From: a bacterium
GTDB lineage: Bacteria; UBA8248
Reading direction: 5' to 3'
Length of the DNA stretch: 64,000 nucleotides
Assembly (NCBI GenBank): GCA_965207065.1
Contig: OZ242260.1
Coordinates: 2,144,001 to 2,208,000, forward strand
Position 1 is the stretch's first letter, and each line of letters begins with the position of its first letter. The notes beneath the pieces were generated by a model. That model was given only the letters and a program-made list of their open reading frames with translations. It searched no databases and was not told the origin of the DNA. Shown here piece by piece: positions 10,848 through 42,643 of the stretch. The translations under genes and the position numbers were made by a program.

Positions 10848-10848
10848 C

Positions 10849-11643: not shown

Positions 11644-11757
11644 GGGAGCGATCTTCATAGGGGTCGCATGCTAAGCTTTTCAACAGCTTCCTGTAATTCG
11701 CGTTAGGCGCACGCCTCGCGAATGGATTCCCCCCGAACCCCCCAACCCCCTTTGACA

Positions 11758-11914
11758 GGGTCTGTTGAAAAACCCGGAGAAGGGAGTTCGCGGTTTTTGT
11801 AGGGGCCGCATATATGCGGCCCTTTTGGTGGGAAATTGGTGCGGGGCGCATATATGCGCCCCCTACACATTCACATACGTCGAACCGCAGAGTTGGGACT
11901 TTTTCAACAACCCC
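11758..11914. mobile_element. 157-bp MITE with 5-bp TSD (TGACA) carrying a GTAG REP doublet
   Basis: Ends GGGTCTGTTGAAAAA / TTTTTCAACAACCCC; TGACA at 11753-11757 and 11915-11919; REPs at 11799-11823 and 11843-11866. Confidence 0.85.
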
Positions 11915-24727: not shown

Positions 24728-25645
24728 TCATCCGCGCGCCTGCAACGCGGCGTCTTTTCTCCGCCTGGGCAGACGCCTCCAGTAGCGGCAGGCGTCCTGC
24801 AGGGGACAGCCCGCGCAGAGTTTTACGTTTCGCTTGCTCGGGCAATGCTTGAGGATGCCCATCCTTGAGATGGCGAAATCGTAGCGCACCGGGTCGTCCG
24901 GGTCGATGCGCTTCAGGTTTCCGGTGATCTCGAGCGCCATCTTGAGGTCCGGCGTTTTTCTGTCGGTGAGTCCCAAAAGGCGCCCGATGCGCGCGATGTG
25001 GGTGTCGAGCGGTATGATGAGCTGGTGCGTTTTCGGTCCTTTCCACAACCCCAGGTCCAGGCCGTCGTCGGGCCGCACCATCCACCGGAGGAACAGGTGG
25101 AGCCGCTTGCACGCGCTGCCGCTCGCAGGATCCGGCAGGAGGTAGGAAATGCCGCGCTCGACCTTTGCGTTCGCTGACGACGCCGGGAGGGAGCGAAGCA
25201 GGCGGTCCCTGAATCTTTTGAGCGCCCCCTGGAGGGTTTCCTCATCTGCGCGGTAGCCCTGGAGAAACAATGCTTCGAGAGAACCCTCCCTCCTGAGCGC
25301 GGCCCCGATCGCCTGGGCGAAGAAACTGATGGCCTCCGGCCCCACCCACCGGTGGTAGAGGCCCTCGAAGAGACGGGCGCTTTCTTCGGGAGAGCAGCGG
25401 CGCAGCGCGGCGGCCGGCCGTGGGCCGAGCCGCTCCATGATGCGCTTTACGCTCATCCGTATGGCGGCGGCGTTGCCGAATGCGAGCGATGCGCTCAGGA
25501 ACGCCGCGACCTCGCGGTCCCGCGCGCCCCGGTAGGCATGCGCGATTCCGAGCGGGTCGGTGGCGAGATAGGCGTCGTGATAGGTGCGGGCGAGCGCGTC
25601 GAGCTTCTCCTTGAGAAGTGGCACGTCTGCGTTTCTGAGGGCCAC
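24728..25645 (-). CDS. TIGR02757/DUF2400 family protein
   Basis: SACKRLHLFLRWMVR, PLDTHIAR, DPVRYDFA, C-terminal Cys cluster. Confidence 0.88.
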   Translation of the reverse strand: MALRNADVPLLKEKLDALARTYHDAYLATDPLGIAHAYRGARDREVAAFLSASLAFGNAAAIRMSVKRIMERLGPRPAAALRRCSPEESARLFEGLYHRWVGPEAISFFAQAIGAALRREGSLEALFLQGYRADEETLQGALKRFRDRLLRSLPASSANAKVERGISYLLPDPASGSACKRLHLFLRWMVRPDDGLDLGLWKGPKTHQLIIPLDTHIARIGRLLGLTDRKTPDLKMALEITGNLKRIDPDDPVRYDFAISRMGILKHCPSKRNVKLCAGCPLQDACRYWRRLPRRRKDAALQARG

Positions 25646-26094: not shown

Positions 26095-26366
26095 TCTTGC
26101 TTATCCCCGGCAGTCATTTCATTTTCTCCTTCTACCCCGAAACCGCTTTTGCAGGTGATGGTGTCCAGAGTATATGTCGAGACCATTGAAATTCAACGTT
26201 CTCGAACCCATGAGCTTGCAAGGAGGCGTTTCCATGCCAATGAGTGGCTTGCGCAGTTGAAAAGAAAAGGACAATATGCGAGAAATCTTCTGCGGCATAT
26301 TTCGCATGGTTCATTCAAATCTAGGTCCATACTGCATCATGTTCTTTGCCACAATGGGGGCGGCCA

Positions 26367-26969
26367 TTGTCCAGCGCGGAAAAATTGTCCAAAAAGAATG
26401 TGTTCACCACGTTCGAGGTGGCGGAAATCTGCGACGTCACGCCGGTCACGATTCAGAACTGGATAGACAAGGGCTGGCTGCGTGCTTACCGAACGCCCGG
26501 AGGCCATAGAAGGGTCAGAAAAGAGGCGCTCCTCGCTTTCCTGGAATCACGCGACATGCCCCACCCATTCCCGGAGAAGGGAGGCGTTCCCCGGGTGCTG
26601 ATCGTGAACGGCGACCTGGGGCTCGCCGACTCTCTCAAAGAAGCGCTCTCGCTCGAAGAGCCGGACTATGACATTGCGGTGGCGCACGACGGGTTTCGGG
26701 CCGGCGTTCTCTATTCCGCTGCGCATCCGGACGTAGTGATACTCGACCTGAATCATTCAAGCGTGGATGGTTATGAGGTGTGCCGTCAGATCAAGCAGGG
26801 TGAGGCCGGCGGCGAAACAGTCGTCCTGGCGCTCGGCGGCGTCGACGGGGACGAACGCAAGCGTATTCTGGAGGTGGGCGCAGCGCATTGCCTCCCGAAG
26901 CCGGTGGATGCCGTGGGTCTCAGGAACCTGGTGAAAGAGGTCATACTGAATCGCTGGAGGTCCGCTTAG
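26367..26969 (+). CDS. Response regulator with N-terminal excisionase/MerR-like HTH
   Basis: FTTFEVAEIC...WIDKG...RTPGGHRR, then receiver domain (VILDL, KP). Confidence 0.85.
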   Translation: MSSAEKLSKKNVFTTFEVAEICDVTPVTIQNWIDKGWLRAYRTPGGHRRVRKEALLAFLESRDMPHPFPEKGGVPRVLIVNGDLGLADSLKEALSLEEPDYDIAVAHDGFRAGVLYSAAHPDVVILDLNHSSVDGYEVCRQIKQGEAGGETVVLALGGVDGDERKRILEVGAAHCLPKPVDAVGLRNLVKEVILNRWRSA

Positions 26970-27034: not shown

Positions 27035-27922
27035 CTAGTTCTCCCTGGACGCGTCCTCATCGGCGCCCCGGTTTCTCAGGAAGCGCTCCAGTTCCCTGGC
27101 AAGATCATCTCCCGAGGGAAGCTCGCCCGGCTGGGTTTCCTCGTCAAAGCCGTCGTCTCTGAGTTTGAGTTGTTCCACGTAATCTTTCACCGATTTGTTC
27201 TTCTCGAGCGCCTCATCGACTTTCTCCTCGAATTCATGCGCGCCCGCTTCGAGTTCGGAGAGATTGAGGGGATAGGAGAGGAAGTCACCGAGCCGCTCCA
27301 CCAGGGCGAGCGCCGCCTTCGGGTTGGGCGTCACGTTCACGTAGTGGGGCACGTTCGCCCACACGCTCACGGCGGGGAGGTTTTCGTCGCGGAACAGATT
27401 GTTCAGTACACCGACGATTCCGGTGGGTCCCTCATAGCGCGAGGGATTGAGGCCGAGTTGAGAAGCAATATCCGGGTTCGTGGAGGTGCCGGTGATCCGG
27501 ACGCGGTTTCGGTGATAGACGTCGGCGAGCAGGGCGCCTACCGTCACGGCCATACGCACCCGGCATTCGCGCACCATGGACAGAATAAGTTTCGAAAAGC
27601 GCCCCCATTGCAGATGAGGCTCCACGCCCAGAAACACCACCACGTCGTGTTCGAGGTTCGGCGTCTCGCAGGCGTAGAACGTGTTCGAGGGCCAGGTGAT
27701 TTTCCGGCGGCTGTCCTCATCGAGGCTCACATGGGGCCGCATGTCCTGAAAATTATAGAAGGGGTCGGAATCGATTTGGGCGAATTCCGAACCCCCCATT
27801 TTCTCGGTGATGAAACTCGCGGCGGTCGTGGCGGCGCTGCTGGCGTCGTTCCAGCCCGCGAAAGCCATGAGCAGAGCGGGGTCTCTGAGTTTCGGCGTTT
27901 CCTTGATTTCGAGATATTCCAT
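27035..27922 (-). CDS. PAC2 family (proteasome assembly chaperone-like) protein
   Basis: AFAGWNDA, GVEPHLQW, GALLADV, YEGPTGIVGVL, WANVPHY, ELERFLR. Confidence 0.88.
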   Translation of the reverse strand: MEYLEIKETPKLRDPALLMAFAGWNDASSAATTAASFITEKMGGSEFAQIDSDPFYNFQDMRPHVSLDEDSRRKITWPSNTFYACETPNLEHDVVVFLGVEPHLQWGRFSKLILSMVRECRVRMAVTVGALLADVYHRNRVRITGTSTNPDIASQLGLNPSRYEGPTGIVGVLNNLFRDENLPAVSVWANVPHYVNVTPNPKAALALVERLGDFLSYPLNLSELEAGAHEFEEKVDEALEKNKSVKDYVEQLKLRDDGFDEETQPGELPSGDDLARELERFLRNRGADEDASREN

Positions 27923-28166
27923 TTGTTTGTCCCCCCTGTGCCGCATTATGAATCCAAGGAAAAAGAAAGACGACCATTGTATGAGGTCTCAGGTGGGGAT
28001 TCAATCCTTTATTTCGGGGATTGTCCTGCGGCGTTTGATGGAGGCGCGTCCGTGGGATATAAATTTTCAGCCTGCGGGCCATTCCGGCAGATGGAGGGAT
28101 CTTCCTTCATTCGAAGAAGTGGCGTTAAGGAGCGGGCCGAATGCGGTTGAACGTGAGGGATCAGTT

Positions 28167-28949
28167 ATGAACGCCCCCGAATCGGCGGGAATGAAGGATA
28201 AGGTGGTTCTGGTGACGGGCGGTGCGCGGGGCATTGGCGCAGCCATTGCGAGGCGCTTCGCGCGAGAGGGCGCGCACCTGGTCCTGAATCACAGGGACGG
28301 CAAAGGCAGATCCGCCCGGATGGCGGGCGAGCTTTGCCGGGAGGCCGAAGCCGCCGGTAGCCGTGCGGTCGCCATCCCGGCCGACATTTCGAAGAAAGAC
28401 GCCGTCAAGGCCATGTTCGCGCAGGTGGAAGAGGAGTTCGGGCGGCTCGACGCGCTCATCCTGAACGCGGCGCGCGCGCCCTTCAAGCCATGGGAGAAGC
28501 TATTGGAGCGTGATCTCAAGCTCCTGGTGGAGACGAATTTTCTGGGCAACGTCTTCTGTCTGCAGGGAGCGCTTCCGCTGCTCTCACGCCAGGGCGGAGC
28601 CGTCGTGTTCATTTCGAGTCTGGGGAGCCGTTTCTATCATCCTGAATACCCGCTCGGTCCCATGAAAGCGGCGATGGAGGCGGCGGTCAGGCATTGGGCG
28701 GAGAGTTTCGAGGAGAGAGGCGTGTCGGTCAACGCCGTCTGCGCGGGTCTCGTGAAGACGGATTCGTTCAAGACGCTGCGCATGATTCAGCCGGAGTTGG
28801 CCGAGCTGCCGGAGCGCTATTTCGTGACGCCCGGGGAAGTGGCCGAATCGGTCTATTTTCTCGCGGATGCCGGCGCGGCTTCCATCCGGGGACAGACTCT
28901 CGTGGTCGACAGGGGGCTCAGCAACCGGCTGAACCGCCCCCCGGGGTGA
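28167..28949 (+). CDS. SDR oxidoreductase, FabL-like enoyl-ACP reductase
   Basis: TGGARGIG, LNAA, ISSLGSR...Y-x5-KAAMEA resembling FabL; RBS GAGGGA. Confidence 0.75.
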   Translation: MNAPESAGMKDKVVLVTGGARGIGAAIARRFAREGAHLVLNHRDGKGRSARMAGELCREAEAAGSRAVAIPADISKKDAVKAMFAQVEEEFGRLDALILNAARAPFKPWEKLLERDLKLLVETNFLGNVFCLQGALPLLSRQGGAVVFISSLGSRFYHPEYPLGPMKAAMEAAVRHWAESFEERGVSVNAVCAGLVKTDSFKTLRMIQPELAELPERYFVTPGEVAESVYFLADAGAASIRGQTLVVDRGLSNRLNRPPG

Positions 28950-29086
28950 TGGAACGAGGGAGATTCATCGGGGAAGGTTGCTTTTCGCAACTCTCCTTGG
29001 TTTTATACGCTTGAATGAGCAGGGAATTTTCACGCGCACCCATACGCGAGGATGTGCTACGTGCTTGATCGTTACAGAGGACAACC

Positions 29087-29650
29087 ATGTCGCAAAACCT
29101 GATATCGGACGATACGATTTTAGATGAAGTGAAAAAGGCGATCGCCCACACCACGGGGATCGACGAGGAAACCATCGAGTCGGACAGTTCCCTGGTGGAT
29201 GACCTGGGTGTTTTGTCGCTCGATTTTCTGGATGTGAACTTTCGCCTCGAACAAGTGTTCGGCATCAAGATGGCGCGCAACTTCGTTCTGGAGCACGTGG
29301 AGGAGATGTTCGGCGAAGGCGTGGCCATCAACGAGGAGAGCGAGGTGACGGACACAGGGGTCGAGGTCTTGAAGCTGCGCCTCCATGAGGCGGCGGCGGA
29401 TCTGGAGCCGGGTATCCCCGTGGATGAGCTCCCGGCCCTCGTAACGCCGAAGACGCTGGCGGGCGCTGTGCGCGACGTGCTGAACTGCCTGCCCGAGAAG
29501 AGTCCGGCGGGGGCGGATTGGAAGGCCGAGGATGGAACGCGCATCGTCTGCGCCGAGACGAACGAACCCGCCTCTTTGCCCAGCGGTGATGAAGTGGTCC
29601 AGAACTGGCTGAACCGGACGCAAGAGGAAAAAGGCCTCTTCTCCGCCTGA
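29087..29650 (+). CDS. Extended acyl carrier protein (187 aa)
   Basis: Acidic ACP N-terminus with LGVLSLDFLDVNFRLEQVFGI, then a long insertion and extension. Confidence 0.8.
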   Translation: MSQNLISDDTILDEVKKAIAHTTGIDEETIESDSSLVDDLGVLSLDFLDVNFRLEQVFGIKMARNFVLEHVEEMFGEGVAINEESEVTDTGVEVLKLRLHEAAADLEPGIPVDELPALVTPKTLAGAVRDVLNCLPEKSPAGADWKAEDGTRIVCAETNEPASLPSGDEVVQNWLNRTQEEKGLFSA

Positions 29651-29692
29651 GGGACTGCTTCAACCAAGCCATTTTACCGGGAGAACATGTGA

Positions 29693-31003
29693 ATGGCCGG
29701 TAGCGGCAGACGGGTCGTGATCACCGGATACGGGGCGATGACGCCTCTGGGCGGAGACGTCACCTCCACGTTCGACGCCGCGCGCGAGGGTCGCTCGGGC
29801 ATCGACGTAGTGCGCCACTTCGACCCCGAAAAACTGCCCTGCCGCATCGCCGGCGAGGTGGATGATGAATGGATCGCCTCGCAGGAGAACGGCGCGGGCC
29901 GCAGGCTCGATAAATTTTCCACCCGGGGCGTGCGCATGATGCGCGTGGCCGTATCCGAGGCGGCGCAGACGGCGCGCCTGGGTGAAGTTTCAGAGCGTAA
30001 GCGAATCGGCGTTGCGCTCGGCTCCCACGGCGATCACCCCCAGGTCGAAGAATTGCTCCGTATCTTCCCCTTCTGGAAGCCCGATAGCAGCGACCCCTTG
30101 CAGGGCGGGTGGGACATCCAGGGACTCAAAAGCCGCGGCGTCTATGATCTGATGACGTTTTTCAGAAGAAAGTCCGACGTGGCGACCTCGGTCGTCGCCC
30201 TCGATTTCGACTGCCGGGGTCCCATGGTCTCCATCTGCTCGGCCTGTGCGGCGGGGGCGCAGGCTATAGGCGAGTCCGTGCGCCTCATTCGCGACAATAA
30301 GGCCGACGTCATGGTGGCGGGTGGCTGCGAGGCGCCTATCACCTATGTGGGGTTTCTCGGCTTCGTCCTGCTCACTGCGCTTGTGGAGCGGTACGAAACC
30401 CCGCAGAGCGCGTCACGTCCCTTCGACAGGAGGAGAAACGGCTTCGTGATGTCGGAAGGCGCGGGCGCGATGATTCTCGAGAGCTACGAGCACGCGCGCG
30501 CGCGGGGGGCCGAAATTTTGGGCGAAGTGCTCGGCTACGGCGATTCCTCGGATGCGTTTCGCATCACCGACATGCACCCGAGGGGCCTGGGCGCGGTGTT
30601 CGCCATGAAAAAGGCGATTGAAGACGCGCGGCTCGCGCCCGATGCGGTCGAATACATCAACGCGCACGGCACCTCGACGCCCAAGAACGATTCGACCGAA
30701 ACCAGGGCCGTCAAGGAAGTCTTCGGCGCTCACGCGGAGAAGATACCGATCAGCTCCAACAAATCCATGATCGGCCACACCATCGGCGCGGCCGGGGCCG
30801 TCGAGGCGATTCTGGCCGTGGAGGGAATGCGCCGATCGGAAATCCTGCCGACCATCAATTATCAGAACCGCGACCCCAAGTGCGACCTCGACTACGTGCC
30901 CAACGAGACAAGGGCGCAGGCCCACCGCGTGGCTCTCTCCAACAGCTTCGGATTCGGCGGGCAGAACGCCTGCCTTTGTCTGGGCGGCCCCGAGATCGCG
31001 TGA
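29693..31003 (+). CDS. Beta-ketoacyl-ACP synthase (FabF-like), Cys-His-His intact
   Basis: SACAAG, NAHGTST, KSMIGH, SNSFGFGG. Confidence 0.93.
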   Translation: MAGSGRRVVITGYGAMTPLGGDVTSTFDAAREGRSGIDVVRHFDPEKLPCRIAGEVDDEWIASQENGAGRRLDKFSTRGVRMMRVAVSEAAQTARLGEVSERKRIGVALGSHGDHPQVEELLRIFPFWKPDSSDPLQGGWDIQGLKSRGVYDLMTFFRRKSDVATSVVALDFDCRGPMVSICSACAAGAQAIGESVRLIRDNKADVMVAGGCEAPITYVGFLGFVLLTALVERYETPQSASRPFDRRRNGFVMSEGAGAMILESYEHARARGAEILGEVLGYGDSSDAFRITDMHPRGLGAVFAMKKAIEDARLAPDAVEYINAHGTSTPKNDSTETRAVKEVFGAHAEKIPISSNKSMIGHTIGAAGAVEAILAVEGMRRSEILPTINYQNRDPKCDLDYVPNETRAQAHRVALSNSFGFGGQNACLCLGGPEIA

Positions 31004-32190
31004 ATTTTTCATCCATACCGATCACCGGCGCCGGCCTGGTAACGGCGGCGGGGCGAGGCGTCGAACCCGCCTGGGAGGCCCTTTGCGCGGGGCGTTCCCT
31101 ACTCGCTTTGGACACAGACCCCGAACTCGCCGGTTTTCCTCCCATCGAAACAGCTCGGTGCGCGCGGATCGACCCCGAATCGGTCGGGGCGGACCGCCGC
31201 GCGGCGAGAACCATGGGTCATCATACCCATATGCTCCTGGCGGCGGTTCACGATTTGGTGACCGGCGCCCCTGCCGTTTCGGAGATGGAAGAGGATGAAA
31301 TCGCATTTTTCGCAGGGATGGACTCGGTCGATCCGGGGAAAGACGATTTGATGGGCGCGGTGAGAGACTCGGGAGACCGGGTGGACCTCGTGCATTTCTT
31401 CAGCGAGGGGATGGACACCATCCCTCCGCTTTGGCCGTTGAGCATGGTGAACGCGATAGGTTTCAGCCAGGCCGCGATTCAGCACAGGTGGCGGGGCGAG
31501 AACGCCGTTTTCAGCGCAGGCCCGGAGGCGGCGGCGCGCGCCGCCTGCGAGGCGGCGGATTCCATATGTACAGGCAAGGCGAGACTCGCTCTTTGCGCCG
31601 GCGTGAGCGGGGTGGTTTCCGCCCGCATGCTGGCCCGCGCGCAGCGGCGCGGCGTCTGGCCCCAGGCGGGGGGTCTGGGCGAGGGCGCGGGTGTAATTCG
31701 CATCGAGAAGCCAGAAGAAATCGACCGGTCCAAAATACTCGGTTGGCTTAAAGGATATTCTTCTGTTCGTGCGCTCAAAAAACGAGGCGGCCTCGCCCGA
31801 GCGGTTCAAACATCGGCCGAAGGCGCTCTCGCAAGCGCTGTTCTCATGCCTGATAAAGTAGACCTTCTCGTGATTCACGGGGAGGGGGAGCCTCGGGCGA
31901 ATAAGGCGGAGGCGCAAGCGATTCGCGCTCTTTTGGGCGGCCACAAGCCTTGGGGGCTTGCGACGAAGGGCGTATTCGGCCACCTTTGGGGGGGAAGCCC
32001 GGTGCTGGACCTGATTATGGCGATGAAAGCTCTGGCCGTAGGCGCCCCGCCTCCCACTTCTGTAGCGGAGGGCGGATTGTTTCGCGATGCGGCGGGTGGT
32101 CCCGGGCGGGATGAACTCGAAAACGCGCTCGTGTTGCTCCAGGGCTTCGACGGCGTGTGTGCGGCTTTCGTGGTGGGCAAGAGCGCTTGA
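31000..32190 (+). CDS. Ketosynthase-fold protein lacking catalytic Cys (chain-length-factor-like)
   Basis: GTG start overlaps the previous TGA; ITGAGLVT, GEGAG, HGEG, KGVFGH; SAGPEAA at the Cys position. Confidence 0.8.
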   Translation: MNFSSIPITGAGLVTAAGRGVEPAWEALCAGRSLLALDTDPELAGFPPIETARCARIDPESVGADRRAARTMGHHTHMLLAAVHDLVTGAPAVSEMEEDEIAFFAGMDSVDPGKDDLMGAVRDSGDRVDLVHFFSEGMDTIPPLWPLSMVNAIGFSQAAIQHRWRGENAVFSAGPEAAARAACEAADSICTGKARLALCAGVSGVVSARMLARAQRRGVWPQAGGLGEGAGVIRIEKPEEIDRSKILGWLKGYSSVRALKKRGGLARAVQTSAEGALASAVLMPDKVDLLVIHGEGEPRANKAEAQAIRALLGGHKPWGLATKGVFGHLWGGSPVLDLIMAMKALAVGAPPPTSVAEGGLFRDAAGGPGRDELENALVLLQGFDGVCAAFVVGKSA

Positions 32191-32205
32191 CGGGAGAACA
32201 AGAAA

Positions 32206-32658
32206 TTGCGGTTTCTCTATTTCGATCAGATCAAAGAAGTTGTGCGAGGTGAGCGCATCGTGGGTGTCAAGACGTTTCCGCTCTCGGAAGCGTACCTGAA
32301 CGCCCATTTCACTCGTGCCCCGCGCGTGCCCGGCTCGATCCTCATCGAGGCGATGGCGCAGATTACGGGTTGGCTCGTGGTCTACACCTATGATTTCAAG
32401 ACCCCGTGCGTCATCTCGCTCATCGACGATGTGGAGGTGGCGAGCGATCTGCGCCCCGGAGTGTCCGTGGAGATTCATGGCGAGATGATCGACACGAACG
32501 AGCGAGCGAGCCTGTGCCGCGCGCGAATCGAAAAAGACGGCGTTCCCGTGGCGAGGGCCGAGAGGCTCGTATATCCCCACTTTCCCAACGAAGATACCGA
32601 AGGCCTAAAGGAGCGCTTTAGAAACTATGGCTGGCTGGCGTTCGAGGAAACTGCATGA
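32206..32658 (+). CDS. FabZ/FabA-like 3-hydroxyacyl-ACP dehydratase 1
   Basis: HF...PRVPGSILIEAMAQ. Confidence 0.88.
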   Translation: MRFLYFDQIKEVVRGERIVGVKTFPLSEAYLNAHFTRAPRVPGSILIEAMAQITGWLVVYTYDFKTPCVISLIDDVEVASDLRPGVSVEIHGEMIDTNERASLCRARIEKDGVPVARAERLVYPHFPNEDTEGLKERFRNYGWLAFEETA

Positions 32659-33920
32659 GCGCGCAGGTATTCATCACCGGACTCGGCATGGTGACCTCAT
32701 TGGGGGCAGACGTGGAGACTTGCTGGCGACGTGCGCTTGCCGGTGAATCGGGACTCGCGCCGATTGCGTCTTTCGACGCGAAGGCGCTGCCCATCGCGGG
32801 TGCCGGCGAGGTCACCGAGGAGTCGCTCCGCGCCATCAGGGAGAGATTGCCCGAGGAATACGCAGGCGAGGGGGAGCGCAGGGTGTTGTTCGCGCTCGAC
32901 GCCGCGCAAAGTGCGATGACGGACGCCGGGATGCGCCCCGGCGATTACGCGCCCGAACGCGCGGGCGTGGTGATGGGAACCGGTCTGAGCAGCTACCGGC
33001 TGGAGGATTTCGCGGCCTGGGCGGACCCCGAAAACGGATTCGACGCCGTGCGCTTCGCCAGAGAACTCGAGATGACGCAAGAAACGGGTTACTTCAACAA
33101 CCCGCCCGAGCGGGCGACGTCGAAGATGGCGGAGTGGTTCGAACTCGCAGGCCCCACCGGCACCATCACCTCCGCCTGTGCGGCGGCGGGACAGGCGATA
33201 GGACTCGGGATGCGAATGATCCGGAGGGGCGAGGCGGACGTGGTTCTTTGCGGCGGGGCCGATTCGATGATCCATCCCGTCGGAATGGCCATATTCCTCC
33301 TGCTGGGTGCTGCGTCCAAATCGAAAGTTCCCGTTTGCCGCCCGTTCGACAGGAAACGCACAGGCCTCGCCGTGGGCGAAGGGGCGGGCGTGGTGGTTCT
33401 CGAATCAGAAGCCCATGCGCGCAAGCGGGGCGCTGCGCCCTGCGCCGCACTATCGGGCTACGGGGCGAGCATGGACGCTCATCAGGTGACAGCCCCGCAC
33501 CCGGCGGGCCGCGGAGCCGTTCGCGCGATGAGCGAGGCGTTGGGGGATGCGGGTCTCACGCCCGGTGACGTCGCCTACGTCAATGCGCACGGCACGGGCA
33601 CGAAACTGAACGATCCGGTCGAGTCCAGGGCGATTCGCGAGGTGTTCGGCGCGGGGGCGGATGCGCTGGCGGTGAGTTCGTCCAAATCCATGATTGGGCA
33701 TCTTATCGCCGCTTGCGGCGCGCCCGAGTTTATCTTCACGGCCTTGAGCGTGGCGCGCGACATCGTGCATCCTACGGCGAATCTAGAGAACCCGGACCCG
33801 AAGTGCGATCTCGACTACGTGGCCGAGGGGGCGAGAGAGATGCCCGTGCCCGCCGCCATCACGAATTCCTTCGGTTTCGGCGGACAAAACGCCACACTCC
33901 TCGTGAGCAAGGCGGCTTAG
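32655..33920 (+). CDS. Beta-ketoacyl-ACP synthase (FabF-like), Cys-His-His intact
   Basis: SACAAA, NAHGTGT, KSMIGH, NSFGFGG. Confidence 0.93.
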   Translation: MSAQVFITGLGMVTSLGADVETCWRRALAGESGLAPIASFDAKALPIAGAGEVTEESLRAIRERLPEEYAGEGERRVLFALDAAQSAMTDAGMRPGDYAPERAGVVMGTGLSSYRLEDFAAWADPENGFDAVRFARELEMTQETGYFNNPPERATSKMAEWFELAGPTGTITSACAAAGQAIGLGMRMIRRGEADVVLCGGADSMIHPVGMAIFLLLGAASKSKVPVCRPFDRKRTGLAVGEGAGVVVLESEAHARKRGAAPCAALSGYGASMDAHQVTAPHPAGRGAVRAMSEALGDAGLTPGDVAYVNAHGTGTKLNDPVESRAIREVFGAGADALAVSSSKSMIGHLIAACGAPEFIFTALSVARDIVHPTANLENPDPKCDLDYVAEGAREMPVPAAITNSFGFGGQNATLLVSKAA

Positions 33921-33945
33921 CAACCCAGAAGAAAGGTGATTCGCA

Positions 33946-34698
33946 ATGAAAATCGATTTGAGCGGAAAAATCGCGCTGGTGACCGGGGGCGGTCGGGGCA
34001 TCGGTCGCGCCTGCTGCACGGCGCTGGCCGAGGCGGGCGCTTCGGTGGCGATCAACTACAGCCGCTCGGCGGAGGCCGCCGAGGAGGTGAAGGGGGAGAT
34101 CGAGGCGGCCGGCGGGCAGGCGAATACCTACCAGGCCGACGTCTCCTCTTTCGAAGACGTGACGGCGATGTTCGAGAAGGTGAAGGCGGATTTCGGCACA
34201 CTCGACATCCTGGTGAACAACGCGGGCGTCATTCAGGACGGCTTGCTGCTCACCATGAAGCCCGCGGGCTGGCGCAAGGTGCTCGGTGTGAGCCTGGACG
34301 GCGCCTACCACTGCACGAAGGCGGCAGGCGAGATCATGCTCAGAAAGCGCTCCGGCAAGGTGATCAGCATTTCCTCCGTCATGGGGGTCTCGGGGGGAGC
34401 CGGTCAGACGAACTACGCTTCCGCCAAGGCGGGCATCATCGCCTTCATGCGCGCCTGCGCCGCCGAGATGGGTAAACGCGGCATCCAGTTCAACACCATT
34501 TTACCGGGCATGATCGTCACCGACATGAGCGAGCGCGTGCGCGAGAAGGGCGGCGACGTGATTATGGGACGCATACCGGCGGGCCGCTTCGGCGAACCGG
34601 AGGACGTGGCCAGGCTCGTGGTGTTCCTGGCGTCGGCGGAATCGGATTACATCAACGGCCAGGCGATAGCCGTGGACGGCGGCCTGCTCACCGGCTAG
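33946..34698 (+). CDS. fabG: 3-oxoacyl-ACP reductase
   Basis: TGGGRGIG, NNAG, GQTNYASAKAG, VDGG. Confidence 0.9.
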   Translation: MKIDLSGKIALVTGGGRGIGRACCTALAEAGASVAINYSRSAEAAEEVKGEIEAAGGQANTYQADVSSFEDVTAMFEKVKADFGTLDILVNNAGVIQDGLLLTMKPAGWRKVLGVSLDGAYHCTKAAGEIMLRKRSGKVISISSVMGVSGGAGQTNYASAKAGIIAFMRACAAEMGKRGIQFNTILPGMIVTDMSERVREKGGDVIMGRIPAGRFGEPEDVARLVVFLASAESDYINGQAIAVDGGLLTG

Positions 34699-34715
34699 GG
34701 CGGGGGATATTCAGG

Positions 34716-35132
34716 ATGCGGCTGTACCAGGGGGTGGATTTGGTGGAGGTGGCGCGCCTGAAGGAAGCCTACGAGCGCCACGAGGCGTTCGGCGAGGACG
34801 TTTTCACCGATGCCGAGCGGACGTATTGCCTGAAGCGCCGCAATCCCTACCCCCATTTCGCGGCCCGCTTCGCTGCGAAAGAGGCCTGCCTCAAGGCTTT
34901 CGGCCTCGGCATTTCCGAACCGGGCGGGCTGGGCGGCAGGGGCCGCCTGCGCGAGATTGAGGTGGAATCGGCGGCTTCGGGCAAGCCCACGCTCAAACTG
35001 AGCGGTTCGATGGAGCGGATGAGCGCGCGCAAGAAGATCACCCGGTTCACCGTTTCGCTGAGCCATACGCTGGAGTTGGCGGTGGCCCAGGTGATTCTCC
35101 TGGGTGAGGACGCGCCGGAAGAGGCGGATTAG
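34716..35132 (+). CDS. acpS: Holo-ACP synthase (phosphopantetheinyl transferase)
   Basis: GVDLVE, AARFAAKEA..KA, SLSH. Confidence 0.92.
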   Translation: MRLYQGVDLVEVARLKEAYERHEAFGEDVFTDAERTYCLKRRNPYPHFAARFAAKEACLKAFGLGISEPGGLGGRGRLREIEVESAASGKPTLKLSGSMERMSARKKITRFTVSLSHTLELAVAQVILLGEDAPEEAD

Positions 35133-35143
35133 GGGGCGGTGAA

Positions 35144-35596
35144 TTGAGATACATGCTTGTGGACAGGGTGACGGCGTGGGAGGCGGGGGTCTCCATCCAG
35201 GGGGTGAAGAACATTACGATGAGCGAGGATTTTCTGGAGTATCACTTCCCCCGGTTCCCCGTCATGCCGGGCGCGCTGATATTCGAGGCGCTGGTGCAGC
35301 TTGCAGGCTGGCTGGAGGCGGCGGGTTCGGATTTCAACCGGTGGATTCTTTTGGAAAAGGTCCGGAGCGTCAGGTACTATGGATTCGCCTTTCCGGGGGA
35401 TCAGGTTCTCCTGAACGTGGAGGCGCGTGGAGAGGAAGAAGGACTCAATAATTTCAGGGGAGTGGCCACCGTGGAGGGGGAGCGCCGGGTGGTCGCCGAT
35501 TTTGCCGGAAAGGTGGCGCCGCTTGCGGATTATGAAGACCCCGAGGAGCAGCGCCATCATTTTCGTGTTTTAAGACGCGAGGTTCGGTTGAGTTAG
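35144..35596 (+). CDS. FabZ/FabA-like 3-hydroxyacyl-ACP dehydratase 2
   Basis: MLVDRV, HFPRFPVMPGALIFEA. Confidence 0.9.
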   Translation: MRYMLVDRVTAWEAGVSIQGVKNITMSEDFLEYHFPRFPVMPGALIFEALVQLAGWLEAAGSDFNRWILLEKVRSVRYYGFAFPGDQVLLNVEARGEEEGLNNFRGVATVEGERRVVADFAGKVAPLADYEDPEEQRHHFRVLRREVRLS

Positions 35597-35608
35597 GCGG
35601 AATGAGCG

Positions 35609-36907
35609 ATGCGAGGCGAAAAAGTATGGATAACGGGCGTGGGGCTGTTGACCGCCATAGGCGGGAGCGCAGGGGAGAACTGGAAATCGCTCCGCGCCGG
35701 AAAATGCGGGGTCGACCACCATCCGAGCAAGGAGAATGCGTCTCTTCCGGGTAATTTCGCCTACCACGGCGTCGTTTCCGGCCATGAAGACCCGCCCGAG
35801 GTGCCGCCCAAACTAGCTAGCCAGCGGAAGTTCCTGAACAGAAGCTCCATCCTGGGGCTTCACGCCGCCGCCGAGGCGGTGGCCTGCGCTGGACTCGATA
35901 TGGGCGAGGTGTCACCTGAGAGAAAATCCCTCTACGTGGGTTCGGGCGATTTCACGAGGGTGGGCTACGTGGATTTCTACGCGGCGCTCAAGGAGACGGC
36001 AGGCGATTCGTGGGAGGCGCCGGAACCCGCCTTGCTTAACGAGGCGGCGCTCCACAGGGTAAGTCCTTTTTACCTGCTCGAAGGCCTGCCCAACAATCTT
36101 TTCAGCTATTTATCGTCCATGTACGAATTTATGGGGCCGAATGGCAGCTTCTCCAGTCTTTCTTCCTGCGGAGCGCAGGCGCTCGAAAACTGCGATCGCG
36201 TGCTCCGCTTTGGCGAAGCCGACGTCGGCCTGGTCGTGGGCTGCGGTAGTTGGGCGCACCCCATGATGCTCCTGGAACTAGACGGCCTGGGCATTCTCTC
36301 CCAGGCGAAAGAGGGCGCGGCGTCGTTCCGGCCTTTCGATAAGAGGCGCGATGGATTCTTTCCCGGAGAGGGCGCCGCCGCCCTGGTGCTCGAGAGCGCC
36401 GAATCCGCCCAAGCGCGTGGCGCAAAGCCCCTGGGCCGCGTGATGGGAACGGCGAATTGCCAGGAATACTCCACTGAACGCTATATTCCCGTTCCAACCG
36501 GAGCGGTGCGCCATTCGGTGGAATCGGCGGTGGCCGAGGCGGACATAGAACCCGATGATCTGGCTTTCATCCTTCCCCACGGAAGCGCGACGCCCCGGGG
36601 AGACGCGGGCGAATTGTCCGCCTTGCTGGAATTCAGCGATCAGGTGAAGGACCCGGTTCCGCTTGCCGGCTGGAAGCCTTATACGGGACACATGGGCTCA
36701 GCCAGCGATTTGGCCGAGATCGTGCTGGGGCTCTGCGCCTTGAAAGACGGCCGCCTTCCGCCCACGCCGGGTTTCGAGCGCAAAGACGACGCGTTCGATG
36801 CCCTCCACATCCCCACCGTGGAATGCGCCGTCGCGGGGGCCGCGTTCTTGTCCCTGAGCCACGGCATCGGCGGGCAATCCTCCGCGACCATCGTCGCCGC
36901 GCCGTGA
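35609..36907 (+). CDS. Ketosynthase-fold protein with Ser at the catalytic Cys position
   Basis: SSLSSCGAQA aligns to CSACAAGAQA; RPFD, GEGAA, HGSAT, KPYTGH retained. Confidence 0.85.
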   Translation: MRGEKVWITGVGLLTAIGGSAGENWKSLRAGKCGVDHHPSKENASLPGNFAYHGVVSGHEDPPEVPPKLASQRKFLNRSSILGLHAAAEAVACAGLDMGEVSPERKSLYVGSGDFTRVGYVDFYAALKETAGDSWEAPEPALLNEAALHRVSPFYLLEGLPNNLFSYLSSMYEFMGPNGSFSSLSSCGAQALENCDRVLRFGEADVGLVVGCGSWAHPMMLLELDGLGILSQAKEGAASFRPFDKRRDGFFPGEGAAALVLESAESAQARGAKPLGRVMGTANCQEYSTERYIPVPTGAVRHSVESAVAEADIEPDDLAFILPHGSATPRGDAGELSALLEFSDQVKDPVPLAGWKPYTGHMGSASDLAEIVLGLCALKDGRLPPTPGFERKDDAFDALHIPTVECAVAGAAFLSLSHGIGGQSSATIVAAP

Positions 36908-37890
36908 GCAAACCCAAAGAGTCCACCAGGAGAAAGCGCAGCAAAGACAAGGGCGCATTTCACCAATGGGTGGAATACGCCCTGATCATCTCGGTTTTGA
37001 GGCTGATTCGCATGCTCCCCTACGGGGTCTGCCGTGCGTTCTCCGTCATAGTCGGGGAGGCGATTTTCCGGTTCGCTCCGAGGAGAAGGCGCATCGCGCG
37101 CGCCAACCTGCGCATCGCGTTTCCCGAACTCGACGAGGCGCAGCGCCTGGTTCTGGCGAGGCGCAGTTGCCGTTCGTTCATACTCACCTGTCTGGAGGGA
37201 GCGAAGTTTCTCACCCATTTCGATTTGCGGCGCGCAGAGAAAACGGTGCGCGATATCGTGGACGGCGCAGAAGAGACGATAGATAAGGTGCGGGCAATTC
37301 ACGAGGATGCGGGTGGCTGCGTGTTCGTCGTGCCGCATCTGGGGAACTGGGAATTCCTCGCCCATGCCGGCGCACTGGCGGGGATTCCGCTCACAGTCCC
37401 CGTACGTCCCCTGGACAACCGGAAGCTCGAAGCCTCGCTGTATCAAATGCGCGCATCCTCCGGGCAGGAGATATTATCCAAGAAAAACGCTTTCTTCCAT
37501 CTGCGCGAGGCGCTGCGCAAGGGCCGCTCGGTGGCGATTCTCGCGGATCAGAACGCGGGCGGCGATGGAATCGACGCGCCGTTCTTCGGCAAGCCCGCCA
37601 GGACGACGCCCGCCCCCGCCGCGCTCGCAGTCCTTTACAATCGGCCCCTCGTCCTGATCTCTTGCCTGAGAAAAGGCGATGACCGCCGTTACGAAATATT
37701 GCTGAGCGAGCCGATAACGCCCGACATGAACGCGCCAAGCGCAAAGAAAGAAATCGAGAGGCTGACGAAAACCGTGAACGAGGAGACGGAAAATTTTATT
37801 CGAAAGGGGCCGGAGCAGTACCTGTGGATTCATGACAGGTGGAAACTCACGAAAAGCCAGGGTCGTGCGCGCTGGGCCGGTTCAGGGTGA
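36904..37890 (+). CDS. Lipid A late acyltransferase-like (LpxL/HtrB family)
   Basis: ANLRIAFP, HLGNWE, ILADQ, FFG, PEQYLWIHDRWK; GTG start overlaps the previous stop. Confidence 0.88.
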   Translation: MSKPKESTRRKRSKDKGAFHQWVEYALIISVLRLIRMLPYGVCRAFSVIVGEAIFRFAPRRRRIARANLRIAFPELDEAQRLVLARRSCRSFILTCLEGAKFLTHFDLRRAEKTVRDIVDGAEETIDKVRAIHEDAGGCVFVVPHLGNWEFLAHAGALAGIPLTVPVRPLDNRKLEASLYQMRASSGQEILSKKNAFFHLREALRKGRSVAILADQNAGGDGIDAPFFGKPARTTPAPAALAVLYNRPLVLISCLRKGDDRRYEILLSEPITPDMNAPSAKKEIERLTKTVNEETENFIRKGPEQYLWIHDRWKLTKSQGRARWAGSG

Positions 37891-38286
37891 GGATGGAGAG
37901 GAGGCGGTTTCTTTCAGGTGCTTGAAGAAGGGGTCGCCCAGTTTTTCGAGTATCGACTCGAGCTTTTCCGTGCAGTCGCAATCCCCGCAGACGGGATAGC
38001 CCTCGCAATCCTCCGGTTTCCGGGCGAAGCGCACGTCGATTTCCTCGAAATACGCCTCCCAGTAGGGTAGTTCCTCATACAGCTCATAACCCGGCCCGAA
38101 CGCCTCGCGGCAGTAGCAGACCTCGAGCCAGCGAACCTGGCCCTCCTTGGTAAGACGCGCCTTTTTCATGCACTTCAGGAAAGTTTGGTGCGCGATGGAG
38201 CCGCGCCCGAGTTCACCGGACTCGATGGCTTTTAGCAAAGCCGCGCCTTTACCCTCGATGACTTTTCCGCGCACCAGATACCGCAT
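37882..38286 (-). CDS. Hypothetical Cys-rich protein
   Basis: Protein-like ORF with RBS GGAGG; VCYC and C-x5-CxxCxC motifs. Confidence 0.75.
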   Translation of the reverse strand: MRYLVRGKVIEGKGAALLKAIESGELGRGSIAHQTFLKCMKKARLTKEGQVRWLEVCYCREAFGPGYELYEELPYWEAYFEEIDVRFARKPEDCEGYPVCGDCDCTEKLESILEKLGDPFFKHLKETASSPSSP

Positions 38287-38427
38287 GGAACCTCCATGGG
38301 TTTTTCATGAATCCTTCATTCGATTGTAACATAGGCGTTATGATTCATGTATAGATTGCCAAAGGCTTCGAGTATCGACGGCGTACAACGCCAAAGCGAG
38401 GAACGGATGAACACAGGGGCAGGCGGA

Positions 38428-39888
38428 ATGACGGACAAACCAATCGAAATCACCATGGTGGCGAGCGAGATGTTTCCTTTCGCCAAATCGGGCGGACTAG
38501 GCGACGTCATCGGCGCGCTGCCTTTGGCCCTGGGGCGGATGGGCCACAAGGTCTGCGTCTATCTGCCCGCGTACCGCTCCATTTTACGGGAATATGAGAT
38601 TGAGCCTCCCGGACAGGTCTCAGATGTCTTTTCCGATGCTCACTACGAGATATTCTCGCTCGAACACGAGGGCGTTTCGGTCAGACTCGTCGCAGCGGAT
38701 GACCTGTTCGATAGGGACGGATTCTACGGGGACGCGCGCGGGCCGTTCCCCGACAATGCGGAGCGCTACGCCCGCTTCGCAAGGGGTGCGCTCTCCCACA
38801 TGGAGCATGAAAGAGCCTATCCGTCCGTCATCCATTGCCATGACTGGCAAAGCGCCTTGATTCCGCCCTTGCTGGAATACCGCCGCGCGGACGATGAGAA
38901 ATGGAGCGGAGTCTCCTCCGTTTTCACCATCCACAACCTGGCGTATCAGGGCCGGTTCCACCCGGATGATTTTGCGCATACATGCCTGCCTGATGAGGCG
39001 ATGGGCATGGAGGGACTCGAGTTTCATGGCGACGTGAATTTCATGAAGGGCGGCATTTTGTTCAGCAACGTCTTCTCCACCGTGAGCGAGCGGTATGCGC
39101 AGGAGATGCTGACGGAAGAGCAGGGAGAGGGGCTCGAAGGGGTGGTCGTTCTCAGAAAAAATTCTTTGTTCGGCATCATGAACGGCATCGACGACGCGGT
39201 CTGGAACCCGGAGACCGACCCGCACATTTCGGCGCCGTTCTCGAGCGCGCACCCGGATGGCAAGGCGAAGTGCAAGGCCGCGCTTCAGGCGGAGTTGGCG
39301 CTGGACCCGGACGCGGGGGGGCCTTTGTGCGTCGTCGTCTCTCGGCTGGCGCATCAGAAGGGAATCGACCTGATTCTCGAAACGATGGATGAACTGATGG
39401 ATTCAGGCATAAGCCTGGCCATCCTGGGAACCGGGGAGGAGGAGCTGGAAGAAGGACTCGCCGAGGCCGCCTCTTCTCACCGGGGCCGGATGGCCTTCGT
39501 GCCCGCCTACGACGAAGCGCTCTCTCACCGCATGTACGCGGGGGGCGACGTCCTGCTCATGCCCTCGCGCTATGAACCCTCGGGCCTGAACCAGTTATAC
39601 GCCATGCGCTACGGCACCCTGCCTTACGTCCGGCGGGTCGGGGGGCTTGCGGATTCGGTTTCCTCGTCACCCATACCCGACCCGGATGCCGACACCGGTT
39701 TTCATTTCGATCAGTTCGTCCCGGCCGAATTTCTCGCCGGGATGGAGGAAATTTGCCGGGTGTTTTTGGATCTGGGGCTTTGGCGTATGATGATGCGCAA
39801 CGCGATGGAGAAGGATTCCGGCTGGGACGGCGTCGCGCCCCGCTATGTCGAGTTGTACGAGAAGGCGATGCGCCCGCAGACGCGTTGA
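38428..39888 (+). CDS. glgA: Glycogen synthase
   Basis: KSGGLGDV, HCHDW, TIHNLAYQG, PSRYEP, GGLADSV. Confidence 0.95.
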   Translation: MTDKPIEITMVASEMFPFAKSGGLGDVIGALPLALGRMGHKVCVYLPAYRSILREYEIEPPGQVSDVFSDAHYEIFSLEHEGVSVRLVAADDLFDRDGFYGDARGPFPDNAERYARFARGALSHMEHERAYPSVIHCHDWQSALIPPLLEYRRADDEKWSGVSSVFTIHNLAYQGRFHPDDFAHTCLPDEAMGMEGLEFHGDVNFMKGGILFSNVFSTVSERYAQEMLTEEQGEGLEGVVVLRKNSLFGIMNGIDDAVWNPETDPHISAPFSSAHPDGKAKCKAALQAELALDPDAGGPLCVVVSRLAHQKGIDLILETMDELMDSGISLAILGTGEEELEEGLAEAASSHRGRMAFVPAYDEALSHRMYAGGDVLLMPSRYEPSGLNQLYAMRYGTLPYVRRVGGLADSVSSSPIPDPDADTGFHFDQFVPAEFLAGMEEICRVFLDLGLWRMMMRNAMEKDSGWDGVAPRYVELYEKAMRPQTR

Positions 39889-41149: not shown

Positions 41150-42643
41150 ATGCGCCTGGCTGACATCCGTACCCGCGCCGAGGAGTTCCTCGGAGAGTCA
41201 CGGAGGGAGTGGTACGAGGTCGGCGCGGGCCTCAAGGAAGACGTGCGCCTGAGCGAGATTTTTGCCGAATACGCCGACCTTTTCACCCGCGATAACATCG
41301 AGACACTTACCTCCCTCGCCGATTCGGCGGACGATGAAGACGAGTCCCTGAGGTTGGCCGAACTGCGTGGTTTCCTGACCCTGGCCCATATACGCAACGA
41401 GACCAGGGATTTGAGCGAGAAGGCGCTTCTCTTCGAGACCAAGACGACGGTGGAAACGCCCGAGGGCGAGTCCATCCCCTACCGGCAAAGCGCCGTTGCG
41501 CTCCTGAACGAATCGAACCGCGAGAAGCGGACTTTTCTGGAAAACGCCCGCTGTGAGGCCCTGGCGGAGAAGAACGTATTTCTGGAGCAGATTCACCGCG
41601 CTACCCACGGGATGGCCGATGACCTGGAGTTCGAGGGCTACCTAGGGATGATGGCGGCGCTGAAGCGCTATGAGCTTGAGCCGGTCAGGGACGAGATGCA
41701 GCGTTTTCTGGAATGCACCGGCGCGCTTTACGCAGAGGCGATGGAAGAGGCGCTGATCCGGATGGATGTTCCGCTTTCTTCTGCACAGCGCCACGATGCG
41801 CAGTTCTGTTTTCGCGGTTCCGAGTACGACGCTCTTTTCCCGGCGGAGAAAATCGAACCCTCGGCGCGGGAGGTGTGCGCCTCGATGGGCCTCGATCTCT
41901 CGGCGGAGGGCCGGGTACGCCTCGACATCGAGGATCGCCCGCTCAAGAGCCCCCGCGCGTTTTGCGCCTCGATTCGCGTGCCAGAGGAGGTCTATCTCGT
42001 CATCAGGCCCCGGGGCGGCTATGACGATTACAGCGCGTTCTGGCACGAACTCGGCCACGCGCTCCATTTCGCAGGCGTGGCGGCGGATGCGCCATTCGAG
42101 TGGAAGCGCCTGGGGGACAACTCCGTGACGGAGGGGTTCGCCATGCTCTTCGATCACCTGCTGCTCGAGCCGCTCTGGCTGGAGGATGCACTGGGCGGAG
42201 AGGCCTCGGACTACGCGGCGTTTCTGGCGCACCATGCGCTTTTTGAACTCTATATGCTCAGGCGCTATGCGGCGAAAATCGACTATGAACTCACACTCCA
42301 CCAGGGCGCTGATCTGACGGGCAAGGACGACGCCTACCGGGAAAAACTCAGTTCAGCGACGGGGGTGGAATACCCGCGAATATCCTATCTCGACGACGTG
42401 GACCCGTTTTTCTACTGCGCGAACTACCTGAGGGCATGGATGCTCCAGGCCCAGATGGCCGAGGTCCTGAAGACGAAATTCGGGGAGAGATGGTGGGCCA
42501 ATCGCGAGAGCGGCGGGTTCCTGATGGAAATCTGGCGCGACGGGCAGCGCCATGACGGCGATTCCCTCTCCCGCCACCTGGGCTACCGGCGTCTCACAAC
42601 GGAGCCGCTCGAGGCGCAGATCAGGAATCTCATGCCGCACTAG
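41150..42643 (+). CDS. M3-like (gluzincin) zinc metallopeptidase
   Basis: KSPRAFC, HELGH, downstream EGFAMLF. Confidence 0.8.
   Translation: MRLADIRTRAEEFLGESRREWYEVGAGLKEDVRLSEIFAEYADLFTRDNIETLTSLADSADDEDESLRLAELRGFLTLAHIRNETRDLSEKALLFETKTTVETPEGESIPYRQSAVALLNESNREKRTFLENARCEALAEKNVFLEQIHRATHGMADDLEFEGYLGMMAALKRYELEPVRDEMQRFLECTGALYAEAMEEALIRMDVPLSSAQRHDAQFCFRGSEYDALFPAEKIEPSAREVCASMGLDLSAEGRVRLDIEDRPLKSPRAFCASIRVPEEVYLVIRPRGGYDDYSAFWHELGHALHFAGVAADAPFEWKRLGDNSVTEGFAMLFDHLLLEPLWLEDALGGEASDYAAFLAHHALFELYMLRRYAAKIDYELTLHQGADLTGKDDAYREKLSSATGVEYPRISYLDDVDPFFYCANYLRAWMLQAQMAEVLKTKFGERWWANRESGGFLMEIWRDGQRHDGDSLSRHLGYRRLTTEPLEAQIRNLMPH

Follow-up and report, generated by a model that had tools for sequence, protein, structure and literature searches.

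An eleven-gene fatty acid synthase operon ending in an LpxL-family acyltransferase may build a special acyl chain for lipid A in a Nitrospinota-like bacterium

Why does a bacterium with canonical loci for fatty acid and lipid A synthesis carry a further set of type II fatty acid synthase (FAS) genes that ends in an acyltransferase of the lipid A type? The question is raised by an 11-gene operon at 28167-37890 of a window of 64,000 nucleotides, which is the whole stretch of DNA analyzed (2144001-2208000 of the genome; positions are those of the window unless the genome is named). The host is a Nitrospinota-like uncultured bacterium, and its 4.48 Mb genome is 96% complete on a single contig. Open reading frame (ORF), Pfam and NCBIfam searches assigned to the operon an enoyl-acyl carrier protein (ACP) reductase (ER), a 187-aa ACP, two condensing ketosynthases (KS1 and KS2), two KS-like proteins (CLF1 and KS3), two dehydratases (DH1 and DH2), a ketoreductase (KR), a holo-ACP synthase (AcpS) and an acyltransferase (AT), all on the + strand. 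The answer toward which we lean is that eight of these genes serve to assemble a special acyl chain, held by an AcpXL-like ACP, that AT delivers this chain to lipid A, and that KR, AcpS and AT have replaced the canonical FabG, AcpS and LpxL in the host's family.

The operon had been described before, in a sequence-only reading, as a self-contained pathway of 11 co-oriented genes with overlapping starts and stops. The layout was confirmed by the ORFs and Pfam matches, and three overlaps were read directly in the sequence, namely GTGA at 31000-31003 (KS1/CLF1), ATGA at 32655-32658 (DH1/KS2) and GTGA at 36904-36907 (KS3/AT). The gene content was also as described, including the absences listed. 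Pfam found no FabD, FabH, PlsX, radical SAM, adenylation or exporter gene within 28167-37890, and the closest glycosyltransferase was a glycogen/starch synthase (glgA-like) at 38347-39888, followed by a GlgC-like gene. Separate housekeeping genes, which that reading had set as a check, were located elsewhere in the genome. The canonical fab locus has the order yceD-plsX-fabH-fabD-acpP-fabF-rnc, and its fabG position between fabD and acpP is empty. The lipid A locus has the order bamA-ompH-lpxD-fabZ-lpxA-GFO-lpxI-lpxB-...-kdtA-lpxK, and with lpxC also in the genome the Raetz lipid A pathway is complete. The description as self-contained did not hold, since the sole PF03279 acyltransferase, the only AcpS-type phosphopantetheinyl transferase (PPTase) and the best FabG candidate of the genome all sit in the operon. 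Its own reductases and PPTase, which had been taken as marks of a stand-alone pathway, lose that meaning. The objection that these might be the only fab copies in the genome is thus right for AT, AcpS and the best FabG and wrong for FabD, FabH, AcpP, FabF and FabZ.

The comparison of relatives divided the operon into two parts. Of 51 genomes of the phylum, 41 belong to the host's family (the host not counted), and 35 of these have the 187-aa ACP; all 10 genomes of other families lack it. Five of the six family genomes lacking this ACP were examined (G042 and G050-G053), and all of them retained exactly KR-AcpS-AT. These genomes are 90-98% complete, and eight of the 11 operon genes are missing from each. 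Their AT is of the cluster type, and the operon-type AcpS is their only PF01648 match. By this comparison, the eight genes appear to be a dispensable specialized synthase, and KR, AcpS and AT appear to be genes that the family cannot lose. The operon as a whole would then be indispensable because KR, AcpS and AT took over the jobs of the lost canonical FabG, AcpS and LpxL, and its eight specialized genes would not be.

The scores of the individual proteins point the same way. KR reached 280.3 bits against TIGR01830, the best of 51 short-chain dehydrogenase/reductase (SDR) matches in the genome (next 251.8 bits, none reaching 297.75), and 237.5 bits against the FabG subfamily model NF009466, above its value of 222. 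With E. coli FabG as the query, KR was again the best match (185.7 vs 168.6 bits for the next). The best match of KR adjoined acpP, the canonical fabG position, in 8 of 12 relatives outside the family, all 12 of which lack the 187-aa ACP. KR is probably the housekeeping FabG as well.

AcpS scored 67.6 bits against TIGR00516, above the cut-off of 59.8. The genome has two PF01648 matches, the operon AcpS and one in a polyketide synthase (PKS) region. Nine of 18 same-genus genomes, including single-contig ones that are 99-100% complete, have no PF01648 match besides the operon AcpS, which would therefore have to serve AcpP too. A further canonical AcpS was found in all five cluster carriers tested from other phyla, which suggests that the operon AcpS began as a dedicated copy. 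The PKS region lies outside the window. It contains a PKS-like ORF of 3475 aa (genome 1325415-1340273) with KS, AT-like, KR-like and carrier domains, and near it there are more carrier proteins and an Sfp-like PPTase (genome 1336681-1337001). As a separate observation, a canonical AcpS adjoins the single LpxL-type gene in a distant relative without the cluster (L119, 10004-11255); the adjacency of AcpS and LpxL occurs outside the cluster too.

ER differs from these genes. Its best NCBIfam family, by 42 bits, was FabL (NF005975), at 183 bits and below the cut-off of 328. Its best solved relative was the NADPH enoyl-ACP reductase 3OIC (127 bits vs 108 for FabG types), and the HMMER alignment has a one-residue gap ahead of the conserved Lys. 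ER thus resembles FabL (3OIC/3OID, presumably from Bacillus subtilis) in nearest family and nearest structure and differs from it in score and in this gap. No FabI orthologue was found; the best match of E. coli FabI in the genome was ER itself (55.8 bits), and among 31 relatives only one matched FabI, weakly. ER was considered as the sole enoyl reductase and rejected, as a second FabL-like SDR (genome 4223139-4223981, 132 bits against the FabL model, with a Y-x6-K motif) is present in 27 of 31 relatives, cluster-less ones included. This second SDR is probably the housekeeping enoyl-ACP reductase of the clade, and ER is an extra copy, because relatives keep the second SDR with or without the cluster. 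An NMO/FabK-like ORF (genome 1983543-1984679) was also rejected for the housekeeping role, as it scored 105.6 bits against a FabK cut-off of 453 and no more than 16 of 31 relatives have it.

AT is the only PF03279 protein in the genome, at 176 bits against a cut-off of 22.3. Its HX4E motif PHLGNWE aligns with HFLTLE of E. coli LpxL (H132-E137), which places it in this family, and its best solved relative is 5KN7, the lipid A lauroyl acyltransferase LpxM of A. baumannii. A PF03279 match was found in 30 of 31 relatives, and 28 of these 30 have exactly one. The 17 same-genus genomes that have both genes carry them on one strand, with AT and ACP about 7-8 kb apart. In a first tree of 38 rows, the 14 cluster-linked ATs formed one clade (SH-aLRT 99) apart from E. 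coli LpxL, LpxM and LpxP. When five ATs from the KR-AcpS-AT remnants were added in a second tree, the clade grew to 19 rows with the same support of 99. It was also apart from the single LpxL-type ATs of ten cluster-less relatives (other families of the same order or class), to which the query AT is 27-30% identical. A locus with an AT fragment of 137 aa (L095) was left out of both trees, and E. coli LpxM and L093 were left out of the second as long branches. Of the phylogeny that had been proposed earlier, the trees covered LpxL, LpxM and LpxP, and the AT clade was distinct from these. In at least three of five carriers from other phyla, more strong PF03279 members accompany that of the cluster.

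The operon carrier consists of an ACP core and an extension of about 110 residues. Ser44, within the motif LSLD, is invariant across 18 aligned homologues. The AlphaFold2 model has a mean pLDDT of 90.5, and its best match among PDB structures in Foldseek was the specialized ACP RPA2022 (3LMO/2KW2), over 122 columns with a TMt of 0.63 and a weak E-value of 2.7e-3. Ordinary ACPs align to the model over only about 65 columns. The best NCBIfam model was PRK06508, which we take to be the AcpXL model, at 49 bits and below the cut-off of 83. At E<=1e-3, 120 of 385 candidates were homologues of this ACP, with source names including Nitrospinae/Nitrospinota, Tectomicrobia and Nitrospirae. In distant relatives the extension has four Cys in a zinc-ribbon-like CxxC...CxxC pattern, of which one invariant Cys (C155) is left in the host's family. 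The extension thus looks to be a degenerate zinc-ribbon.

The KS proteins were aligned to E. coli FabF and the host's own FabF, with homologues drawn from related loci. KS1 and KS2 retain Cys-His-Lys-His and are of the condensing type. KS1, which is 42% identical to the housekeeping FabF, has the catalytic triad and scores 437 bits against NF005589, above the cut-off of 387. Its Cys is present in 28 of 28 homologue rows, and the tetrad is intact in all covered columns except for one Lys-to-Arg change (L039). KS2 has the Cys-His-His triad at 367 bits against NF005589 (below 387) and 378 bits against TIGR03150 (below 494). Among its homologues, Cys and both His were found in 17 of 17 rows and Lys in 16 of 17, the other being Asn (L034). 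CLF1 and KS3 lack the Cys. At this position CLF1 has Pro, and all 17 rows have Ala, Pro or Gly. In KS3 the residue is Ser, as it is in each of the 18 covered rows, five Nocardia rows among them; KS3 retains His-Lys-His in the alignment to E. coli FabF. Both proteins are closest to FabF among solved proteins, and actinorhodin PKS KS and KS-like chains appeared as weak matches lower in the lists. Against the FabZ model NF000582, DH1 scored 57 bits and DH2 89.8 bits, both below the cut-off of 113.

A survey with one genome per species kept 80 loci, 22 of them with a near-full-length ACP match, and these 22 were sorted by tblastn with the 11 proteins. All 11 genes were matched in eight other loci (L025, L026, L029, L035, L037, L039, L043, and L044) from at least four named phyla, with 9 to 11 genes in the same order; ACP and KS1 are swapped in L043 and L044. 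Two AT-ended loci (L034 and L042) miss one or two gene matches, and three shorter AT-ended loci (L028, L031, and L038) are without CLF1 and KS2. The AT-ended loci are labelled Nitrospinota, NC10, Thermodesulfovibrionales, Syntrophobacteraceae/delta, Binatia and Acidobacteriota, and the full gene order was seen in all of these but Binatia. ER-ACP-KS1 is common to 22 of the 22 loci, three of which are broken at contig ends. The 11-gene arrangement is far beyond chance. AT accompanies the KS genes in 13 of the 22 loci, a synteny that the sequence-only reading had expected of related genomes. No flanking gene family was common across phyla when 28 loci were compared. Apart from the cluster's own families (KS, SDR, ACP, DH, AT, and AcpS), none occurred in more than five of the 28, in a comparison whose greedy ORF choice picks some antisense ORFs.

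Other versions of the module exist. In three Nitrospirota loci (L027, L032, and L033), ER-ACP-KS1 adjoins lpxD-fabZ-lpxA-lpxI and gnnA/B-like genes. These neighbors were identified by Pfam in L033 (e.g., 1927-11860: lpxD, lpxA, lpxI, a GFO oxidoreductase, and a DegT aminotransferase), and the other two loci were linked to it by shared ORF clusters. An SLT/LysM gene on the opposite strand divides the trio from the lipid A genes, and L033 also has, 1.2 kb downstream of the trio, a gene for a B12-binding radical SAM protein. Five Nocardia loci (L047-L051, e.g., L047:1320-20200) hold a homologous module without an LpxL-type AT, in the order ACP-KS-KS-like-DH-KS-radical SAM-AcpS-KR-DH-KS(Ser)-ER. 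It looks like a specialized-metabolite cluster on the same acyl-chain module. Ten loci of Verrucomicrobiota and Pseudomonadota have a simpler SDR-KR-ACP-(DH)-KS-KS-AT cluster, here termed acpXL-like, and their ten ATs formed a separate clade with a support of 100. Distant ACP relatives were also present in DH-ACP-DH-KS loci of Planctomycetota, including Kuenenia; the Kuenenia loci match the ACP core only (residues 2-99) and differ in gene order.

In the pathway that we propose, an accessory type II FAS of eight genes (ER, ACP, KS1, KS2, CLF1, KS3, DH1, and DH2) would elongate an acyl chain on the carrier that it includes. Malonyl loading is the one function that this synthase lacks for elongation, and the housekeeping FabD would have to supply it, as it is the only stand-alone FabD-like ORF in the genome (a weaker match lies inside the large PKS ORF). 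From the active-site states, we infer that condensing KS proteins pair with KS-like partners and that KS3 may have a priming role, by malonyl-ACP decarboxylation or acyl transfer. AT would then transfer the finished chain from the special ACP to lipid A, where it would form a secondary acyl group, much as the AcpXL-bound C28 chain is transferred by LpxXL in rhizobia. Lipid A is the best reading of the acceptor because the genome, whose lipid A pathway is complete, offers no late-acyltransferase candidate other than AT, because AT and the synthase have moved together across phyla, and because the carrier looks AcpXL-like. The three Nitrospirota loci in which ER-ACP-KS1 adjoins lipid A genes also count in its favor.

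Several observations weigh against this proposal. The ACP misses the curated cut-off of PRK06508, the Foldseek E-value of its match to RPA2022 is weak, and AT reached 110.2 bits against TIGR02207 (LpxL/LpxP), well below the cut-off of 297.8. The AT trees were built without true rhizobial AcpXL and LpxXL sequences, and we infer both the lipid A acceptor and the special-chain product from sequence. Five Nitrospirota loci hold ER-ACP-KS1 only, and a Planctomycetota locus (L045) has no KS3 or AT match. The AT-less Nocardia module has as its neighbors a B12 radical SAM gene and genes for AfsA (a hot-dog protein), a class-III aminotransferase and an FAD oxidoreductase. These AT-less Planctomycetota, Nitrospirota and Nocardia versions imply that the module can feed other ends. 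The KR-AcpS-AT remnants, furthermore, show that AT persists without the special ACP and must then use ordinary acyl-ACP, so that the adjacency of AT may reflect housekeeping and not a dedicated hand-off. As AT can work without the special carrier, a chain that goes elsewhere has to be considered.

In that rather unlikely case, the eight genes would supply the membrane at large with a special fatty acid, and AT would be an ordinary replacement of LpxL. The product could be an unsaturated chain, if DH-KS pairs act as FabA-FabB do, or a chain for phospholipids or other envelope lipids. The housekeeping behavior of KR, AcpS and AT, which outlast the other eight genes, is consistent with this view, as are the adjacent pairs DH1-KS2 and DH2-KS3 and the five Nitrospirota loci with no AT near ER-ACP-KS1. 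It is opposed by the single AT clade that travelled with the KS genes across phyla and by the dedicated carrier, whose nearest fold of the AcpXL type points to a dedicated transfer. In addition, KS3 of the DH2-KS3 pair has no condensing Cys, and Pfam found no PlsX/PlsY/PlsC-type gene in the operon.

Another possibility, distinctly improbable, is a reducing type II PKS for a polyene-like pigment or signaling lipid, with the LpxL-family enzyme anchoring the product to a lipid. Aryl-polyene clusters have an extra KS, two hot-dog dehydratases, a KR and an LpxL-family acyltransferase, as the operon does, and their ApeD has been proposed to anchor the product to a lipid. They are not known to have an enoyl reductase, and they do have an adenylating starter enzyme, a thioesterase, a glycosyltransferase and MMPL/LolA export genes. 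In the operon, ER is the most conserved partner of ACP. Within 24-42.6 kb of the window, Pfam detected no adenylating enzyme, thioesterase, MMPL/LolA gene or glycosyltransferase other than the glgA-like one. The two dehydratases and the pairing of a KS with a KS-like protein that lacks the Cys do recall ApeO-ApeC (PMC8358021), and the neighbors of the Nocardia homologue would also suit such a pathway. CLF1 and KS3 of the operon are nevertheless nearest to FabF, and the lack of a flanking family common across phyla counts against it too.

It is very improbable that the operon is the housekeeping FAS in an unusual arrangement. Its AcpS, AT and best FabG candidate would fit this explanation, which is largely refuted by the canonical plsX-fabH-fabD-acpP-fabF and lpxD-fabZ-lpxA genes elsewhere, by a separate FabF nearer to E. 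coli FabF (477 vs 297 bits for KS1), by the loss of eight of the 11 genes from five family genomes, and by the canonical AcpS that accompanies the cluster in other phyla. A ladderane-like or otherwise cyclized lipid pathway, which the multiple FabF and FabZ paralogues and the distant ACP relatives in Planctomycetota might recall, is hardly credible, as Pfam found no radical SAM, desaturase or other cyclizing candidate in the cluster and the Kuenenia loci share the ACP core only. The aryl-polyene and ladderane readings fail because ER is conserved and starter, export or cyclizing genes are missing.

Returning to delivery to lipid A as the preferred reading, the closest known system is the acpXL-lpxXL cluster, and the likeness is one of logic and not of membership, because the operon has another gene set, falls short of curated cut-offs and has its AT in a separate clade. 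In rhizobia and Agrobacterium, acpXL-fabZXL-fabF2XL-fabF1XL-adhA2XL-lpxXL makes the 27-OH-C28 chain of lipid A, and in fabF2XL and adhA2XL mutants this chain is lost and ordinary fatty acids take its place, according to PMC11901934. An AT that works without the special carrier has a parallel in these mutants with ordinary fatty acids on lipid A. Both systems have a dedicated carrier, FabZ-like and two FabF-like genes in one orientation, and a Lip_A_acyltrans-family AT at the end; the nearest solved fold of the operon carrier appears to be that of an AcpXL-type ACP, and both need housekeeping enzymes for the remaining steps. ACP, DH, KS and AT of the acpXL gene set were found, whereas the alcohol dehydrogenase adhA2XL was not. 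The operon adds ER, KR, AcpS, a second dehydratase, CLF1 and KS3, its carrier is about twice as long with the zinc-ribbon-like extension, its AT clade is separate from that of the acpXL-like clusters sampled, and its KR, AcpS and AT double as the only or best copies of the cell. AT itself resembles E. coli LpxL, LpxP and LpxM and 5KN7 in family and in the aligned HX4E motif, and in its own genome it is the only family member, beside a complete lipid A pathway; it differs from LpxL and LpxP in falling far below the TIGR02207 cut-off and in its place in a separate clade whose members accompany a FAS cluster. The earlier claim that the gene set matches neither the rhizobial acpXL nor the aryl-polyene clusters stands. 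No description of the 11-gene cluster was found in the literature searched, with subscription journals and supplements outside the search, and PMC9426513, when checked, proved unrelated. It is conceivable, though we would not call it probable, that the operon is an independently assembled, multi-phylum counterpart of the rhizobial very-long-chain fatty acid system, in which two KS proteins with catalytically altered KS-like partners make an unusual or extra-long chain on an enlarged zinc-ribbon carrier for lipid A, and that this imported operon displaced fabG, acpS and lpxL in one Nitrospinota-like family.

The features of the operon are listed in Table 1. Upstream of it lie a divergent PAC2-family gene (27035-27946, -), a response regulator gene with an N-terminal MerR/HTH_17 domain (26346-26969, +) and a DUF2400 protein gene (24728-25645, -). 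Downstream, a 134-aa ORF without a Pfam match (37882-38286, -) is convergent with the end of the AT gene, overlaps it and is conserved in L025; a 497-aa ORF at 41150-42643 (+) also has no Pfam match. The G+C content shows no break along the operon, and promoter and terminator counts at 27-39 kb were not above those of shuffled sequence. Short contigs of 150-390 nt from two runs, presumed to be RNA but perhaps DNA, match ER, ACP, AcpS, DH2/KS3 and AT.

Table 1. Genes of the operon, with positions in the window.
Gene	Position	Strand	Product and Pfam match
ER	28167-28949	+	260 aa, FabL-like SDR enoyl-ACP reductase; adh_short_C2, E 4.8e-48
ACP	29087-29650	+	187 aa carrier; PP-binding, E 1.7e-6
KS1	29693-31003	+	Condensing FabF-like ketosynthase
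CLF1	31000-32190	+	Non-condensing KS-like subunit; weak ketoacyl-synt matches
DH1	32206-32658	+	FabZ-like dehydratase, FabA-like Pfam family; PF07977, E 2.5e-10
KS2	32655-33920	+	Second condensing ketosynthase
KR	33946-34698	+	FabG-type ketoreductase
AcpS	34716-35132	+	Holo-ACP synthase; ACPS, E 2.5e-15
DH2	35144-35596	+	FabZ-like dehydratase; PF07977, E 5e-18
KS3	35609-36907	+	KS-like subunit, Ser in place of active-site Cys
AT	36904-37890	+	328 aa, LpxL-family acyltransferase; Lip_A_acyltrans, E 1.1e-51

What appears to be new here is the housekeeping role of KR, AcpS and AT in the family, the KR-AcpS-AT remnants, and an ER that is not the only candidate reductase. The case also advises caution, in that an own PPTase and reductase are no proof of a stand-alone pathway. 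A dedicated synthase that feeds the only late acyltransferase would predict an unusual outer-membrane lipid in ecologically important and mostly uncultured bacteria, from carrier lineages such as Nitrospinota, NC10, Thermodesulfovibrionia and Binatia. The operon is a compact 11-gene unit for heterologous expression, and the conserved KS paralogue with Ser for Cys and the carrier with a zinc-ribbon extension are points of interest with putative roles. The replacement of fabG, acpS and lpxL by genes of an imported cluster, which are the sole part kept in reduced genomes, would be a clear natural displacement of essential genes. If this displacement is true, an accessory pathway became part of core lipid metabolism.

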